Source: Eledone cirrhosa
Taxonomy: Eukaryota
Assembly (NCBI GenBank): GCA_964016885.1
Contig: OZ024764.1
Coordinates: 11,532,001 to 11,596,000, forward strand
Direction of reading: 5' to 3'
DNA: 64,000 bases
Part shown: one piece after another, positions 946 to 63,946 of the stretch
How the letters are laid out: each line of letters begins with the position of its first letter
Position numbering within the stretch: position 1 is the stretch's first letter
Program-made: the position numbers and the translations under genes
Notes under the pieces: generated by a model
Seen by the model: the letters and a program-made list of their open reading frames with translations, nothing else
The model's database searches: none
What the model was told of the DNA's origin: nothing

Positions 946-1295
946 TTCTATAGCTCGTAGGCTGAAACAGGTAGCTTTTCAAAGTCTGTATGTAAACAAG
1001 TAAACACAAGAGGTATATATATTTCATAGATATGTTACAGATATGGCTGTGTGGTTAAATAGTTCTGCTTCACAACCACATCTATAATGTTTTCAACCCT
1101 ATGTTACAACCTCCTACATTTGATTCCATGATTCTGTGGCACTTCGTTATATACATATATATATATATATATATATATATAAATAAGAGGAATTCCAACT
1201 TTGTCTGATTTACTCGTTTTATTTACAATCCTTTAAAATATATAATGGTATTATAATGAAATAGTATGGTAGAATATTAAATTCTAAGTGTTAAT

Positions 1296-1334
1296 TGAAC
1301 AAGTACTTTCATGCTTTCGCAATCTTCAGGTTCC
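1296..1334 (-). ncRNA. Minimal type-I hammerhead ribozyme motif (mirror copy)
   Basis: Reverse complement of the 1423-1461 motif, in the left arm. Confidence 0.7.
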
Positions 1335-1422
1335 TAATATGTGGTGACAGTCAAGTTTGCAATTTTGAACTGTCAGATTTTCAACAGTTGAAAATTGCAA
1401 ACTTGACTGTCACCACATATTA

Positions 1423-1461
1423 TGAACCTGAAGATTGCGAAAGCATGAAAGTACTTGTTCA
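1423..1461 (+). ncRNA. Minimal type-I hammerhead ribozyme motif
   Basis: tgaac-CTGAAGA-t-tgc(gaaa)gca-t-GAAA-gtac-TT-gttca: 5-bp stem I, GAAA-capped stem II, palindromic stem III. Confidence 0.75.
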
Positions 1462-1803
1462 ATTAACACTTAGAATTTAATATTCTATCATACTATTTCA
1501 TTATAATACCATTATAAATTTTAAAGGATTGTAAATAAAACGAGTAAATCAGACAAAGTTGGAATTCCTCTTATTAATATAATCTTCTATACACAATCAT
1601 ACACACCTGTGTATATTTACCTATCTATATATATATATATATATATATATATATATATATATATATATATATACATATACATGCATACATCTGGGCTTCA
1701 CAGATAAATATGTGACATTGCAATACAATGGGATGAAATATAATAATAGTATCACTGATGATGTCGCAGGCGTGTGATGAAAGAAGTCTGAGAGACTATA
1801 TAT

Positions 1804-3185
1804 CATCATCATCATCATCATCATCATCGTTTAACGTCCATGTTCCACGCTTGCAAGGGTTTGGATGGGGGTTTTCCCACTTGAGGCAAGAGTGGTTGTC
1901 TTGCTCGCATAGGACTGTCTGGCGGGTTTTCTACAGCTGGATGCCCTTCCTAACACCAACCACATTTACAGTGTGGGGCTGGGAGGTTTTTACCGTGTTG
2001 CCTACACGGCCACATTACAGCGTGGACTGTGTGTTTTTTTTCGTCGTGACACCCGCATGACCACTTTACAGTGTGGACTGGGTGCTTTTTTGTCGTGAAA
2101 CCTACACGTCCACTTTACAGTGTGGACTCGGTGCTTTTTTGTCGTGAAACCTACACCCCACTTTACAGTGTGGGCTGGGTGCTTTTTTGTCGTGACACCA
2201 ACACGACCACTTTACAGTGTGGACTGGGTGCTTTTTTGTCGTGACACCTATACCCCACTTTACAGTGTGGACTGGGTGCTTTTTTGTCGTGACACCTACA
2301 CCCCACTTTACAGTGTAGACTGGGTGCTTTTTTGTCATGACACCAACACGACCACTTTACAGTGTGGACTGGGTGCTTTTTCGTTGTGACACCTACATGA
2401 CCAGTTTACAGTATGGACTGGGTGCTTTTTTGTCGTGACACCTACACCCCACTTTACAGTGTGGATTGGTGCTTTTTCGTCGTGACACCTCCACGACCAC
2501 TTTTCAGTGTGGACTGGGTGCTTTTTCGTCGTGACACCTCCACGACCACTTTTCAGTGTGGACTGGGTGCTTTTTCGTCGTGACACCTCCACAACCACTA
2601 TACAGTGTGGACTGGGTGCTTTTTCGTCGTGACACCTCCACAACCACTTTTCAGTGTGGACTTGGTGCTTTTTCGTCGTGACACCTCCACGACCACTTTT
2701 CAGTGTGGACTGGGTGCTTTTTCGTCGTGACACCTCCACAACCACTTTACAGTGTGGACTGGGTGCTTTTTCGTCGTGACACCTCCACAACCACTTTACA
2801 GTGTGGACTGGGTGCTTTTTCGTCGTGACACCTCCACAACCACTTTTCAGTGTGGACTGGGTGCTTTTTCGTCGTGACACCTCCACAACCACTATACAGT
2901 GTGGACTGGGTGCTTTTTCGTCGTGACACCTCCACAACCACTATACAGTGTGGACTGGGTGCTTTTTCGTCGTGCCACATCCGCAACCACTTTACAGTGT
3001 GGGCTGGGTGCACCTCCATGACCACATTGCTGTGGGAGGAGGTAGGGGCATATGGTCTGTATGCTTCAGCTTCGGCTTGTACCCGTGAGGAGTCGGGTCT
3101 TCTGTATTACTGCATAATGCTAGAGGTCACAGTTGTGTGTATACGAGTGTTAACCCTGCAATTGACTGGAATCCTTTCCAGGGGT
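1804..3185 (-). mobile_element. Non-autonomous retroelement (SINE-like) with RTE-type (GAT)n tail and an expanded internal 49-bp array
   Basis: Minus-strand 3' end ...ggacgttaaacgatgatgatg; shares the 'ggaagggcatccagctgtagaaa' block with other copies in the window (8037, 59720, 62190). Confidence 0.8.
1965..3010. repeat. 49-bp minisatellite, ~21 copies
   Basis: Unit acagtgtggactgggtgctttttcgtcgtgacacctccacaaccacttt, head-to-tail with no spacers. Confidence 0.95.
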
Positions 3186-60499: not shown

Positions 60500-62347
60500 A
60501 GACAGTAGGCCCCTCCAAACCTAATATACACCCCCAACCCACTACCCCTATTCCATCCTCCCACTCCCGCCAACACCACCCTATAAAGTTATGTTGGTAC
60601 CACAACATCCAGTCCAAACTAATGAGGTCGTGTAGGTGTTACGACAAAATAACACACAGTCCACACTGTAATGTGGCCCTGTAGGTAACACAGTAAAAAG
60701 GCTTCCAGTCTACACTGTAAGGTGGTAGTGTAGGAGACACAGTAAAAAGGCTCCCAGTCCACGCTGTAAAGTGGTCATGTAGGAGACACAGTAAAAAGGC
60801 TCCCAGTCCACGCTGTAAAGTGGTCATGTAGGAGACACAGTAAAAAGGCTCCCAGTCCACACTGTAAGGTGGTCATGTAGGAGACACAGTAAAAAGGCTC
60901 CCAGTCCACGCTGTAAAGTGGTCATGTAGGAGACACAGTAAAAAGGCTCCCAGTCCACACTGTAAAGGGGTCATGTAGGAGACACAGTAAAAAGGCTCCC
61001 AGTCCACACTGTAAGGTGGTCATGTAGGAGACACAGTAAAAAGGCTCCCAGTCCACGCTGTAAAGTGGCCATGTAGGAGACACAGTAAAAAGGCTCCCAG
61101 TCCACACTGTAAAGTGGTCATGTAGGAGACACAGTAAAAAGGCTCCCAGTCCACACTGTAAAGTGGTCATGTAGGAGACATGGTAAAAAGGCTCCCAGTC
61201 CACGCTGTAAGGTGGATGTGTAGGAGACACAGTAAAAAGGCTCCCAGTCCACACTGTAAAGTGGTCTTGTAGGAGACACAGTAAAAAGGCTCCCAGTCCA
61301 CACTGTTAAGGGGTCATGTAGGAGACACGGTAAAAAGGCTCCCAGTCCACACTGTAAAGTGGTCATGTAGGAGACACGGTAAAAAGGCTCCCAGTCCACG
61401 CTGTATAGTGGTCATGTAGGAGACACGGTAAAAACCTCCCAGTCCACACTGTATAGTGGTCATGTAGGAGACACAGTAAAAAGGCTCCCAGTCCACACTG
61501 TAAAAGGGTCGTGTAGGAGACACAGTAAAAAGGCTCCCAGTCCACGCTGTAAAGTGGTCATGTAGGAGACACGGTAAAAAGGCTCCCAGTCCACGCTGTA
61601 TAGTGGTCATGTAGGAGACACGGTAAAAACCTCCCAGTCCACACTGTATAGTGGTCATGTAGGAGACACAGTAAAAAGGCTCCCAGTCCACACTGTAAAG
61701 GGGTCGTGTAGGAGACACAGTAAAAAGGCTCCCAGTCCACACTGTAAAGGGGTCGTGTAGGAGACACAGTAAAAAGGCTCCCAGTCCACGCTGTAAAGTG
61801 GTCATGTAGGAGACACGGTAAAAAGGCTCCCAGTCCACGCTGTAAAGTGGTCATGTAGGAGACACGGTAAAAAGGCTCCCAGTCCACGCTGTATAGTGGT
61901 CATGTAGGAGACACGGTAAAAAGGCTCCCAGTCCACGCTGTAAAGTGGTCATGTAGGAGACACGGTAAAAAGGCTCCCAGTCCACACTGTAAAGTGGTCA
62001 TGTAGGAGACACGGTAAAAACCTCCCAGTCCACGCTGTAAGGTGGATGTGTAGGAGACACAGTAAAAAGGCTCCCAGTCCACACTGTAAAGTGGTCATGT
62101 AGGAGACACGGTAAAAAGGCTCCCAGTCCACACTGTAAAGTGGTCATGTAGGTGACACAGTAAAAACCTCCCAGTCCACACTGTAAATGTGGTTGGTGTT
62201 AGGAAGGGCATCCAGCCGTAGAAAACCTGCCCGACAGTCCTATACAAGTGAGACATGGTAACCCGATCAATCTTGCCTCAAGTGGGACAATTACCGCCTA
62301 ACCCATGGTAGTGTGGAAGATAGGCGTTAAACAATGATGATGATGAT
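60500..62347 (+). mobile_element. RTE-tailed SINE-like element with ~31 internal 49-bp units
   Basis: 5' part is homologous (inverted) to 59900-60095; array 60655-62190; 3' end ggaagggcatccagccgtagaaa...cgttaaacaatgatgatg. Confidence 0.85.
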
Positions 62348-63221
62348 CTGAAGTATTTCCAGCAGAAGAAATGTCTTTTGTGTAATAAAACAACAATGTA
62401 TTTTCATTTTTTTTTTACTACTTTGGTGTGATCTTTTGATCACATGGATTTAGGAGTTAATCTACTATTGTTGTGGTTGTTGTTGTTGTTGTGGTTGTTG
62501 TTGTTGTGGTTGTTGTTGTGGTGGTGGTGGTTGTTGTTGTGGTGGCTGTTTTTGTTATTAAAACTGGGAAGGTCAAATAATTTATATATATATATATGTA
62601 TGTATGTGTATATATATATATATGTATGTATATATATATGTATGTATGTATGTATATATATATGTATGTATGTATATATATATATATGTATGTATATATA
62701 TATATATGTATGTATATATGTATATATATATATGTATGTATATATATATATATATATATATATGTATGTATATAGCTGTATGTATATATATGTATGTATA
62801 TATATATATATATGTATGTATATATATGTATATATATATATATATATATAGATAGATAGAGAGAGAATGACGAGATGGAGAGAGAGAGAGAGAGAGAGAG
62901 AGAGAGAGAGAGAGAGAGAGAGAGATGATGAGATGGAGAGAGAGGGAGAATGACAAGATGGAGAGAGAGAGAGAGAGAGAGAGAGCATTAAATAAAGCTA
63001 CTTGTAAGAGAACATTTTCATTGTAAGGAAATGTCATTGTAAATAATGTTAGCTTCTGTATTGTTGTTGCTGTTGTTTGATGGAGTGTTTGTTGTAACAT
63101 TTGCTTCAATAATGTCCTTGAATGTGGTGCTCCAGTTTGGCCGCAGTCTAAAGACTGAAAGCAGTAGAAGAATGAAAGAATCTCTCTCTCTCTATATATA
63201 TATATATATATCATCATTATT

Positions 63222-63612
63222 GAGGGTCGGACGATTGGCAGTATCGGTGGAGGGCGGTGGATTGGCAGTATCGGTAGAGGGTCGGACGCCATGCTTTCCA
63301 GCATAGTTACGTCCCTTTACGATCTGAGTTCAAATCCCGCCGAGGTTGACTTTGCCTTTCGTCCTTACAGGGGTCGATAAAATAAAGTACCAGTAATGCA
63401 CTGGGTAATTGCTGACCTTGTGCCTAAAGTAGAAACAATTATTGAGGGTCGGACGCCATGCTTTGACCCATAGTGTTACGGCCCTTGCCATTCTGAGTTC
63501 GAATCCCGCCGAGGTTGACTTTGCCTTTCATCCTTAAGGGGTCGATAAAAATAAAGTACCAGTAATACACTGGGGTAATTGCTGGCCTTGTGCCTAAAGT
63601 AGAAACAATTAT
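63222..63612 (+). mobile_element. Two tandem SINE family B copies
   Basis: 63252-63440 is full length; 63444-63612 is 5'-truncated. Confidence 0.9.
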
Positions 63613-63758
63613 TATTGTTGTCATTTTATGTCCACTTACCATGGTGGAGGAGTTTGGACTCCATATATACATGTATGTATATATATATATATATACATGT
63701 ATGTATATATATATATACATGTATGTATATATATATATATATACATATATATATATAT

Positions 63759-63946
63759 GAACGAGTAGGACCCCGAGGGCTGAGCTCAAGCCGTTTCGAC
63801 GGCTAATTCTGTCCAGAATTAGCCGTCGAAACGGCTTGAGCTCAGCCATCGGGGTCCTACTCGTTCCTATTACCCACTCTACTACCCTAAGTATTGAGTA
63901 CTTTGGTGCGTTATGGTCCACCTGGTTCCTTACCACATTTCCTTTG
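63759..63946 (+). mobile_element. Fold-back element: near-perfect 108-bp hairpin plus tail
   Basis: 63759-63866 is a palindrome centred on ttctg-tc-cagaa; tail has actc-tactaccctaagtatt-gagtac. Confidence 0.8.

Follow-up and report, generated by a model that had tools for sequence, protein, structure and literature searches.

Hammerhead elements in the window

The DNA analysed here (the window) is a stretch of 64,000 nucleotides from contig OZ024764.1 of Eledone cirrhosa. Its ten complete hammerhead motifs correspond to seven insertions, which lie among the following features:

1178..1622: family A fold-back in (TA)n, head-to-head 3' ends of a Penelope-like element (PLE), by its motifs of Neptune/Nematis type; short arm on the left, long arm with a tail of ~45 nt on the right
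1297..1333, minus strand: family A hammerhead; U·U at 10.1/11.1, palindromic loop-less stem III, UU at the cleavage triplet end
1423..1461, plus strand: family A hammerhead, found by the structural descriptor
1752..1791, plus strand: diverged eleventh hammerhead, bulged base before stem II
7939..7972, minus strand: family F fragment, limited to the 3' half of the hammerhead
13816..14071, plus strand: family B 3' end with long tail, probably of a Hydra-type PLE; hammerhead 13871-13936, plus
16376..16984: family D, 314-nt ORF-less unit (putative retrozyme) in a rearranged head-to-head copy; hammerheads intact at 16809-16850, plus, and decayed at 16376-16414, minus
17257..17669: family B fold-back with tail; hammerheads 17304-17369, minus, and 17484-17554, plus
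22385..22521, minus strand: family F short copy with long tail; core clipped by the 5' end
28680..28800, minus strand: family G, fold-back and tail, no hammerhead
32436..32823, plus strand: family E, part of one unit of a tandem ORF-less element (466-520 nt), putative retrozyme, stopping at the short 3' end (+251); hammerhead 32536-32580, plus
33796..33920, plus strand: family H, decayed copy resembling a hammerhead, position 3 being U; 96.8% identity to 35778-35902
34658..35113: family C fold-back, 3' ends of a PLE assigned by motifs to the Hydra clade, tail of ~85 nt; hammerheads 34702-34772, minus, and 34916-34986, plus
35778..35902, plus strand: family H, second copy
35991..36086, minus strand: family F short copy (pLTR, Hydra clade by motifs); hammerhead 36027-36075, minus; 5' end at stem I
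36105..36331: family G, tailed fold-back lacking a hammerhead
44037..44170, minus strand: family F short copy with intact core; stem I lacks its 5' strand
47084..47178, minus strand: family F tail alone, no hammerhead
63755..63950: family G fold-back with tail; contains site 63824, not a hammerhead

The palindromes, one-sided tails and (TA)n flanks of an earlier note on this sequence were all found again, but only three of the seven insertions carry a complete motif in both arms. Arm identity is 95.6% in A, 95.5% in C and 86.4% in B. Among the six partial sites of that note, 16376, 22470 and 44120 are decayed or clipped copies of D and F, and 33830 and 35812 represent a single decayed motif, present twice, in which position 3 is U, whereas 63824 is no hammerhead. 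We rejected family G as a decayed hammerhead: CUGANGA is absent from the window copy and from the 260 nt upstream of all 15 other copies. The motif at 1752..1791, absent from the earlier note, resembles by eye a family, named I, of loci L104 and L164. A tblastn search with the ORFs of A, C, F and L104 found no PLE ORF inside the window.

Detection and structure of the motifs

Our structural descriptor combined the core CUGANGA/GAAA/UH with stems I, II and III of at least 3 bp, and allowed U·U at 10.1/11.1 and a palindromic loop-less stem III. Run over the whole window, it recovered the ten type-I hammerheads of the earlier note and no others, against a mean of 0.01 (maximum 1) in 200 local dinucleotide shuffles. 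All ten have the core, three stems and an opening at stem I. A stricter descriptor, without U·U and without the loop-less stem III, retained five of them, and a relaxed one added the diverged eleventh (mean 0.03 in 100 shuffles). CUGANGA alone is hardly above expectation (19 vs ~14 by chance). The motifs are confirmed, as predicted structures, to be real type-I hammerheads. They fall into six families, the minimum previously proposed: eight belong to A, B, C and F, and two to D and E.

The proposal that the core is kept while the stems covary also held. Outside the U·U pair, where the search pattern did not demand pairing, the positions of stem II pair in 146, 144 and 143 contexts out of 148 (mostly seeded, related copies), with several pair types, and family D has the covarying variants UGC/GCA and CGC/GCG. 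The 10.1/11.1 pair is U·U in A, D, E and F and A-U in B and C; the G10.1-C11.1 pair usual in PLE hammerheads is absent from families A-F. Stem III is palindromic in A, B, C, D and E, which suggests that cleavage would need a dimer. Rfam gave little support: the best 150 of 889 matches in the whole-window scan were only microsatellite-driven miRNA matches, motif E scored 18.5 bits against Hammerhead_HH9 (gathering score 52), and the F/G stretch, scanned singly, had no match. For most motifs, minimum free energy folding of the single sequence failed to reproduce the complete hammerhead.

Genome-wide abundance

We found at least ~90,000 hammerhead cores in the 3.0-Gb genome, of which 74,706 have U·U at 10.1/11.1 (control 584). 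Exact patterns matched 5,562 copies of A, 3,759 of B, 12,127 of C, 28,397 of F and 10,759 of E, against none for the controls, which were reversed patterns; family D has 180 copies with one mismatch allowed. The genome is thus very rich in hammerheads: published counts include 4,000-9,000 in coelacanth and frog, ~5,000-6,000 in mussel and coral, and up to 120,000 in the far larger genome of the axolotl. In 19 stretches of 10 kb chosen regardless of content (190 kb), we counted 5 strict or 13 relaxed motifs, i.e., one per 15-38 kb. The density of roughly one per 5 kb put forward earlier therefore applies within the window (one per 5-6 kb) but not to the genome sample, and the window is a hammerhead hot spot.

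Coding sequence upstream of families A, B, C and F

The suggested link to Penelope, and the search for adjacent RT and GIY-YIG ORFs proposed with it, proved well founded. In long genomic copies of A, C and F the hammerhead end continues upstream into an uninterrupted ORF with both domains. The family A ORF has 775 aa in loci L041 and L042 (L038 and L039 are laid out alike); in Pfam, GIY-YIG lies above the cut-off and RVT_1 below it (E 3e-6). A separate 476-aa ORF lies upstream; its overlap with the RT ORF is in the -1 frame and spans a U UUU UUA heptamer. Family A shows GxKF, DKG, a CX4CxxC linker and GIY-YIG with CxxC...HH, as well as the pLTR hammerhead, tail and TA target. The CX2-5CxxC linker and CCHH endonuclease expected of Neptune are present, and both are common to Nematis. 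By these motifs A appears to be of Neptune/Nematis type; the label Neptune-like is provisional and denotes a resemblance.

The family C ORF has ~820 aa in L108, with large parts in L109-L112, and is colinear with the window copy in an element of ~3.7 kb. That of family F (758 aa) starts at the hammerhead, so that the tail runs into the ORF; the element has ~6 kb, ~3.6 kb of it after the stop. Both translations contain RW, DKT, a CxCX5C linker, a C-terminal GIY-YIG without CCHH, and CxxC/CxH, and both elements have (TA)n targets. Read from the translations against the criteria in section 11 of PMC8557442, these motifs place C and F in the Hydra clade. Pfam had no match in the C ORF and only a weak GIY-YIG in that of F (E 0.019); Atlas neighbours carry HTH_animal and GIY-YIG. 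Upstream of B, loci L103 and L104 contain broken Hydra-type ORF fragments 35-47% identical to C/F, and no intact B ORF. The 834-aa ORF of L104 was dropped as a family B candidate, being part of a nested element with its own hammerhead (family I).

The copies have the anatomy of endonuclease-bearing (EN+) PLEs: a pLTR or partial tandem, an inverted 5'-truncated copy and an optional tail. Eight of the ten complete motifs mark the 3' ends of protein-coding PLEs (A, C, F and probably B) that have lost their 5' part and are often inverted.

Ends and arms of the copies

In each of the families examined the 3' end falls at one of two fixed points, in (TA)n, and the 5' end varies. Arms are head-to-head, mostly with the short 3' end on one and the long on the other: 8/10 in A, 3/5 in C, 4/4 in F, 3/6 in D and 2/2 in E, by a rough regular-expression pairing in which some short-short calls are internal positions of a long arm. 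The 3' ends cluster at about +130-140 and +164-169 in D, and at +251 and +300-310 in E. Inverted A motifs are spaced from ~85 nt to ~4 kb. At the loci studied, nearly all at the start of contig C1, the two arms of a palindrome agree in their subfamily markers (mean difference 0-0.13 vs 0.38-0.46 for random pairs; 39 pairs), which rejects two different RNAs as the rule. A few pairs do differ, e.g., L201 at 3 marker sites.

Short copies often begin at the same place. When anchored on the tail, 12 of 30 A arms start at -75 to -66 from the cut site, with a mode at -73, as do 12 of 25 further arms at -76 to -67; a TATAAA lies at -104, 31 nt upstream of the mode. In F, 11 of 29 arms, the basis of this result, start at -51 to -37, with the mode at -44 and a TATAAA at -75, again 31 nt away; several long F values are unreliable, as alignments ran through TA repeats in the reference. 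This pile-up 31 nt behind a TATA box suggests that the copies may have arisen by run-off to the RNA 5' end. In C the peak is at -125 to -120 (5/20) and no TATA precedes it by 31 nt; B lacks a clear TATA. Run-off is therefore supported in two of the four families. The 5' ends are not mainly at the cleavage site: only 8/55 A arms and 2/29 F arms begin within 6 nt of it, so some templates may have been cleaved before copying.

The sharp ends could instead reflect stalls or template switches of the reverse transcriptase at RNA structure, or a splice acceptor, a reading we hold to be possible rather than probable. The F mode coincides with the first base of stem I, the A site lies on a pyrimidine-rich CAG, and C lacks the TATA at this spacing; moreover, Penelope of D. 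virilis has a promoter that lacks a TATA box (PMC2377424) and an intron that ends at helix I (PMC4209133). Yet the 31-nt spacing is identical in two unrelated families, and both arms often end at the same base. The A mode lies 40 nt upstream of the ribozyme, and the copies include the CAG and share no exon sequence before it. Run-off remains our preferred account of the pile-up in A and F.

Putative retrozyme families

Families D (314-nt unit) and E (466-520 nt; 466 nt as given for the window motif) form tandems with one type-I hammerhead per unit. Their longest ATG frames have 42 and 112 aa, respectively, and neither had a tblastn match to the four PLE ORFs. E reaches 5 units in one arm among the matches listed. 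Family K, found elsewhere, has a head-to-head array of 6 minus and 8 plus units of 310 nt. Units of D, E and K have 310-520 nt and 34-36% GC, and their circular forms are highly paired (z -4.5 to -7.6 relative to a crude shuffle). By these features D and E appear to be non-LTR retrozymes. An E array was also present in four contig sets from sequencing runs, a result on presence and not on expression.

D and E show the PLE footprint, i.e., head-to-head arms, two 3' ends 30-60 nt apart and (TA)n targets, which points to a Penelope enzyme as their probable spreader. Our search for an autonomous partner of D/E found none, the sole link being between the hammerheads of K and F (89% over 28 nt).

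We consider it unlikely that the D, E and K arrays are local satellites produced from a pLTR by unequal crossover, without a circular RNA template. Such an origin is considered in bioRxiv 2026.07.22.740005, and E units do alternate in length and sequence within a single array. However, the arrays are dispersed, short and head-to-head, they stop at two fixed positions followed by (TA)n, and their units fold well as circles.

Interpretation

The window very probably holds the insertion debris of several EN+ PLEs and of ORF-less retrozymes sharing their machinery. PLE protein is reported to cut both strands of AT-rich DNA and to begin reverse transcription from two positions within the RNA, with the stretch between these positions becoming the tail (PMC11167929). 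Both DNA ends would then prime on one RNA, and the two cDNAs would join at their 5' ends. Where the RNA starts at the pLTR promoter, the cDNAs would run off after 70-200 nt, leaving tiny hammerhead fold-backs as by-products; on read-through RNA they would reach kilobases, and circular or multimeric retrozyme RNA would give multi-unit arms. The templates would be mostly uncleaved, because most copies span the cleavage site.

On balance we favour, with some reserve, a specific form of this scheme, in which a Penelope RT-endonuclease, probably of the Hydra clade, inserts the retrozymes. It would use two fixed priming sites and roll round circular RNA from both DNA ends, giving head-to-head multimers, and run-off at its own pLTR start would have sown the ~10^5 hammerheads, most with the U·U 10.1/11.1 core.

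The earlier note saw in all families tiny ORF-less ribozyme elements mobilised in trans. This fits the tandem units of D and E, but not eight of the ten motifs, since A, C and F join ORFs and B lies beside broken fragments. That every family amplifies in trans from its own short copies is very unlikely. Most copies are indeed short, D, E and K lack an ORF, and copies with sharp 5' ends could in principle be re-transcribed; those ending at -73 or -44, however, lack the upstream TATA box. Finally, chance matches in AT-rich DNA, or palindromes made by assembly, have virtually no probability in spite of the microsatellites, the unremarkable CUGANGA count and Rfam scores below cut-off, being refuted by the shuffles, by the thousands of copies against none for reversed patterns, and by palindrome arms that differ by 4-14% with unequal ends.

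The elements belong to described classes; what they add is genomic evidence on what mobilises retrozymes, so far argued from co-occurrence and sequence likeness (PMC7229834, PMC7761336, bioRxiv 2026.07.22.740005). In this genome the retrozymes bear the tail with two starts and the head-to-head joint that are specific to PLEs; candidate start sites are resolved to the base, and PLE families with uninterrupted ORFs occur alongside. Hence, the question of the mobiliser becomes a direct in vitro test. If a PLE does insert them, these traces in the genome would directly identify what mobilises metazoan retrozymes and would map the start sites of that enzyme. The 5'-end pile-up would also give a simple reason why most animal PLE hammerheads are orphans.

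Comparison with known systems

Single hammerheads, or pairs on opposite strands, from truncated PLEs were described in 2014 (Cervera and de la Peña, PMC4209133). As here, those minimal hammerheads comprise many families per genome, with covarying stems and a palindromic helix III, mostly as single motifs, with pairs 100-700 bp apart on opposite strands. They differ in a conserved G10.1-C11.1 with a bulged base, where A, D, E, F and K have U·U and B and C have A-U, and in number: their highest count, 9,000 in Xenopus tropicalis, is exceeded ~10-fold here.

C and F share RW, DKT, CxCX5C, GIY-YIG without CCHH, CxxC, CxH, the hammerhead and (TA)n targets with the Hydra-clade PLEs of PMC8557442, which are "generally <3 kb", whereas C has ~3.7 kb and F ~6 kb, and both have copy numbers of 10^4. 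The supplement of that study (Craig et al. 2021) catalogues Hydra-1_Obim, a Hydra PLE from octopus that has a hammerhead; the hammerhead listed for it is unlike those found here. Family A agrees with Neptune/Nematis-type EN+ PLEs in GxKF, DKG, linker, endonuclease, pLTR hammerhead and TA target, and differs by its additional 476-aa upstream ORF with the -1 overlap.

In Poseidon_Ac (Frangieh et al. 2024, PMC11167929) the tail is likewise the gap between two RT starts near the ORF start, the target is AT-rich and uncleaved RNA is the main template. That work was done in vitro with one lizard element; retrozymes and genomic 5'-end clustering lie outside the parts considered here.

Metazoan non-LTR retrozymes (Cervera and de la Peña 2020, PMC7229834; Li et al. 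2026, bioRxiv 2026.07.22.740005) are likewise ORF-less tandems, and our units resemble them in length, in the single type-I hammerhead, in GC content and in pairing as circles. The 2026 study, whose sample included no mollusc, bases its argument on co-occurrence and on similarity to pLTRs; the word "inverted" does not occur in the main text of PMC7229834. The arrays described here are, by contrast, head-to-head, with two fixed 3' ends in (TA)n.

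Hammerhead motifs in the window and in the genome

The window (G000:C25:11,532,001-11,596,000) is AT-rich animal DNA packed with microsatellites, and its repeat types suggest an octopus. The full type-I hammerhead descriptor identified 10 motifs in it; 200 local dinucleotide shuffles yielded 0.01 on average. The CUGANGA heptamer by itself occurs 19 times versus about 14 in shuffles. A relaxed descriptor added one motif (1752-1791). The strict set is exactly that of the ten complete hammerheads reported in the earlier note. They may be active ribozymes. Seven insertions account for them, from six families: A, B (two insertions), C, D, E and F. 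Six further sites had been listed as partial or decayed hammerheads. Three of them are clipped or decayed copies of D or F, and two are a duplicated decayed motif (family H). The sixth, at 63824, had to be withdrawn as a hammerhead: it is a member of family G. This family shares the fold-back with a tail (an extra 3' stretch on the longer of the two inverted arms), and the core is absent from 15 out of 15 further copies. Family G is found in the window, as fold-back plus tail without a hammerhead, at 28680-28800, 36105-36331 and 63755-63950, and has a short motif in common with the tail of F. No parent element of G was found.

We searched the 3.0-Gb assembly with family-specific patterns, whose reversed controls gave no match. 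Exact patterns matched 5,562 times for A, 3,759 for B, 12,127 for C and 10,759 for E. The F pattern, which is the 3' half of the motif and covers several subfamilies, had 28,397 exact matches; the G pattern had 38,240, and D, with one mismatch allowed, only 180. A generic core pattern in which positions 10.1 and 11.1 of stem II are both U had 74,706 matches, versus 584 in the control. Together with B and C, this U·U set amounts to at least about 90,000 cores, i.e., one per 33 kb; this very large U·U set is worth pursuing. Nineteen 10-kb stretches (190 kb) contained 5 strict or 13 relaxed motifs. The previously suggested rate of roughly one element per 5 kb is therefore not general, the window being about 2.5 to 6 times denser than the genome average. 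Runs of (TA)6 or more are also denser in the window (36.6 vs 21 per 10 kb).

The window contains other repeats. A LINE-type reverse transcriptase (RT) frame, not of a Penelope-like element (PLE), lies at 11497-13638 (RVT_1, E 2e-25), with another frame downstream. Broken frames at 50614-51265 presumably resemble mariner/Tc1 transposase. Minisatellites with units of 177, 124, 48 and ~72 nt occupy 8211-9961, 38319-39213, 39373-40373, 48500-50189 and 56786-58943; the 177-nt array begins right behind an F fragment. Multi-copy SINE-like repeats in the same TA tracts (32130-32300, 63260-63600, 33460-33790, 35420-35750) are, we assume, octopus SINEs.

Coding elements behind families A, C and F, and fragments upstream of B

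The earlier note interpreted all these copies as tiny ORF-less retroelements. This holds for D and E, which are ORF-less units, but A, C and F are the ends of coding elements, and B is accompanied by broken Hydra-type fragments only. We found no PLE ORF inside the window itself; the elements below come from other genomic stretches (L numbers), nearly all early in contig C1.

The A element, of ~4.4 kb, was found in L038, L039, L041 and L042, among 12 long stretches picked for wide motif spacing. It encodes a 476-aa ORF1 and an RT-GIY-YIG ORF2, the latter without interruption over 775 aa in L041 and L042. ORF1 had no match in a Pfam search. The two ORFs have a 90-nt overlap (-1 frame) that spans a U UUU UUA heptamer (L042:2837-2927; also in L038, L039 and L041), possibly a programmed frameshift in an EN+ PLE. 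L041 and L042 (G000:C1:21868000-21882000) form a head-to-head pair of full-length A copies joined at the hammerhead cleavage site.

Upstream of C, an ~820-aa ORF in L108 ends ~1.07 kb before the hammerhead, and large parts of it are in L109-L112. In F, a 758-aa frame begins at the hammerhead (L115), and the tail is the first part of that frame. The C and F proteins are 37% identical, and both have the Hydra-clade motifs listed in section 11 of PMC8557442. The Hydra-type F element spans ~6 kb (L115:1297-7263), with ~3.6 kb of non-coding sequence after the stop, also present in L113. A decayed F hammerhead lies midway along a repeated block of ~1.4 kb (L083, L088-L090, L096).

The sequence upstream of B in L103 and L104 consists of broken Hydra-type fragments. 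We rejected the ORF of L104 as B's own coding region, since it belongs to a nested PLE, family I (L104:3881-6960; also in L164 and L177), with an 834-aa RT+GIY-YIG frame and a hammerhead of the bulged G-C type.

ORF-less retrozymes and their PLE footprint

E is found as scattered arrays in which the units measure 466-520 nt and an inverted arm is frequent, and D is a closed unit of 314 nt. Outside the window we found a related 310-nt family, K, in head-to-head arrays, e.g., of 6 minus and 8 plus units.

Arrays of family K (310-nt unit, head-to-head multimers)
G000:C1:5388711-5392665
G000:C1:5544277-5546331
L127:2099-2924

K and D have sequence blocks in common, and the K hammerhead is 89% identical to that of F over 28 nt. 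D, E and K gave no match to PLE ORFs and contain no ATG frame longer than 112 aa. Folded as circles, all three are compact relative to a crude shuffle. Between 0.78 and 0.91 of the E unit words are present in six sequencing runs, X1-X6 (five organism labels, library type unrecorded).

All 30 A loci have the same two fixed 3' ends, about 45 nt apart and followed by (TA)n. The retrozymes also have paired 3' ends next to (TA)n. Relative to the cut site, those of D lie at about +130-140 and +164-169 and those of E at +251 and +300-310; for K, one copy ends at +139 and one at +165. Published PLE work describes cuts of AT-rich DNA on both strands and two internal RT starts, the gap between which is the PLE tail in vitro (PMC11167929). 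The paired ends of D, E and K correspond to this tail. In a rough pairing, where some short+short calls are internal positions within a long arm, a long arm faced a short one in E (2/2), D (3/6), A (8/10), C (3/5) and F (4/4). In a single case (L006:1370-1460), D-like sequence is joined straight to an inverted A arm, possibly by template switching between retrozyme and PLE RNA.

These retrozymes were probably mobilised by PLE protein, and their templates may have been circular RNAs. This PLE footprint on ORF-less elements is worth pursuing. Overall, the window is very likely explained by PLE insertion debris together with retrozymes using the PLE machinery.

A probable reason for the small size of the copies

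The 5' extent of the 30 A loci ranges between a few bases and more than 1.5 kb. With patterns downstream of the cut site, we placed the starts of 12 of 30 A arms between -75 and -66. In a second set (25 arms from 20 further stretches, selected for lacking the exact hammerhead pattern), 12 start at -76 to -67, six of them at -73. F arms peak at -51 to -37 (11/29, five at -44; several long F values are unreliable). TATAAA lies at -104 in A and at -75 in F. The same 31-nt spacing from TATA to start in these unrelated families suggests that reverse transcription would run off at the RNA start site. C arms peak at -125 to -120 (5/20) with no TATA at such spacing, B has no clear TATA, and the F peak coincides with the edge of stem I, all of which count against run-off. 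On balance we favour run-off at the transcription start, with some reservation, and this 5'-end pile-up behind a TATA box is worth pursuing. A putative TATA plus initiator was noted in rotifer pLTRs, the PLE terminal repeats (PMC3846280), and the fly promoter is described as TATA-less (PMC2377424).

A minority of arms (8/55 in A, 2/29 in F) start no more than 6 nt from the cut site, including the junction between two full-length A copies in L205/L206. Such starts could reflect templates that had been cleaved, or stem microhomology. Published hammerheads with a palindromic helix III cleave as dimers. F, with stem III forming a closed hairpin, is predicted to cleave as a monomer. Both arms of a palindrome nearly always carry the same subfamily markers (39 pairs), which argues for one template or source as a rule.

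Comparison with known systems

Our literature search, thin on subscription papers, retrieved no publication dealing with retrozymes of cephalopods, or with tailed retrozyme arrays in a head-to-head arrangement. Penelope LINEs are reported as abundant in cephalopods, with ribozymes unmentioned in the accessible text (PMC8967140). Non-LTR retrozymes have been defined, with PLEs named as candidate mobilisers (PMC7229834), a role backed by vertebrate co-occurrence and pLTR trees (bioRxiv 2026.07.22.740005). Thousands of orphan minimal hammerheads were already traced to truncated PLEs, including opposite-strand pairs 100-700 bp apart (PMC4209133). PLE copies are described as inverted and 5'-truncated, with tails of 30-40 bp and a TA bias, and the Chlamys elements as non-autonomous and tandem (PMC8557442). 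The hammerhead given there for Hydra-1_Obim of Octopus bimaculoides differs from those found here. The elements described here belong to already known kinds.
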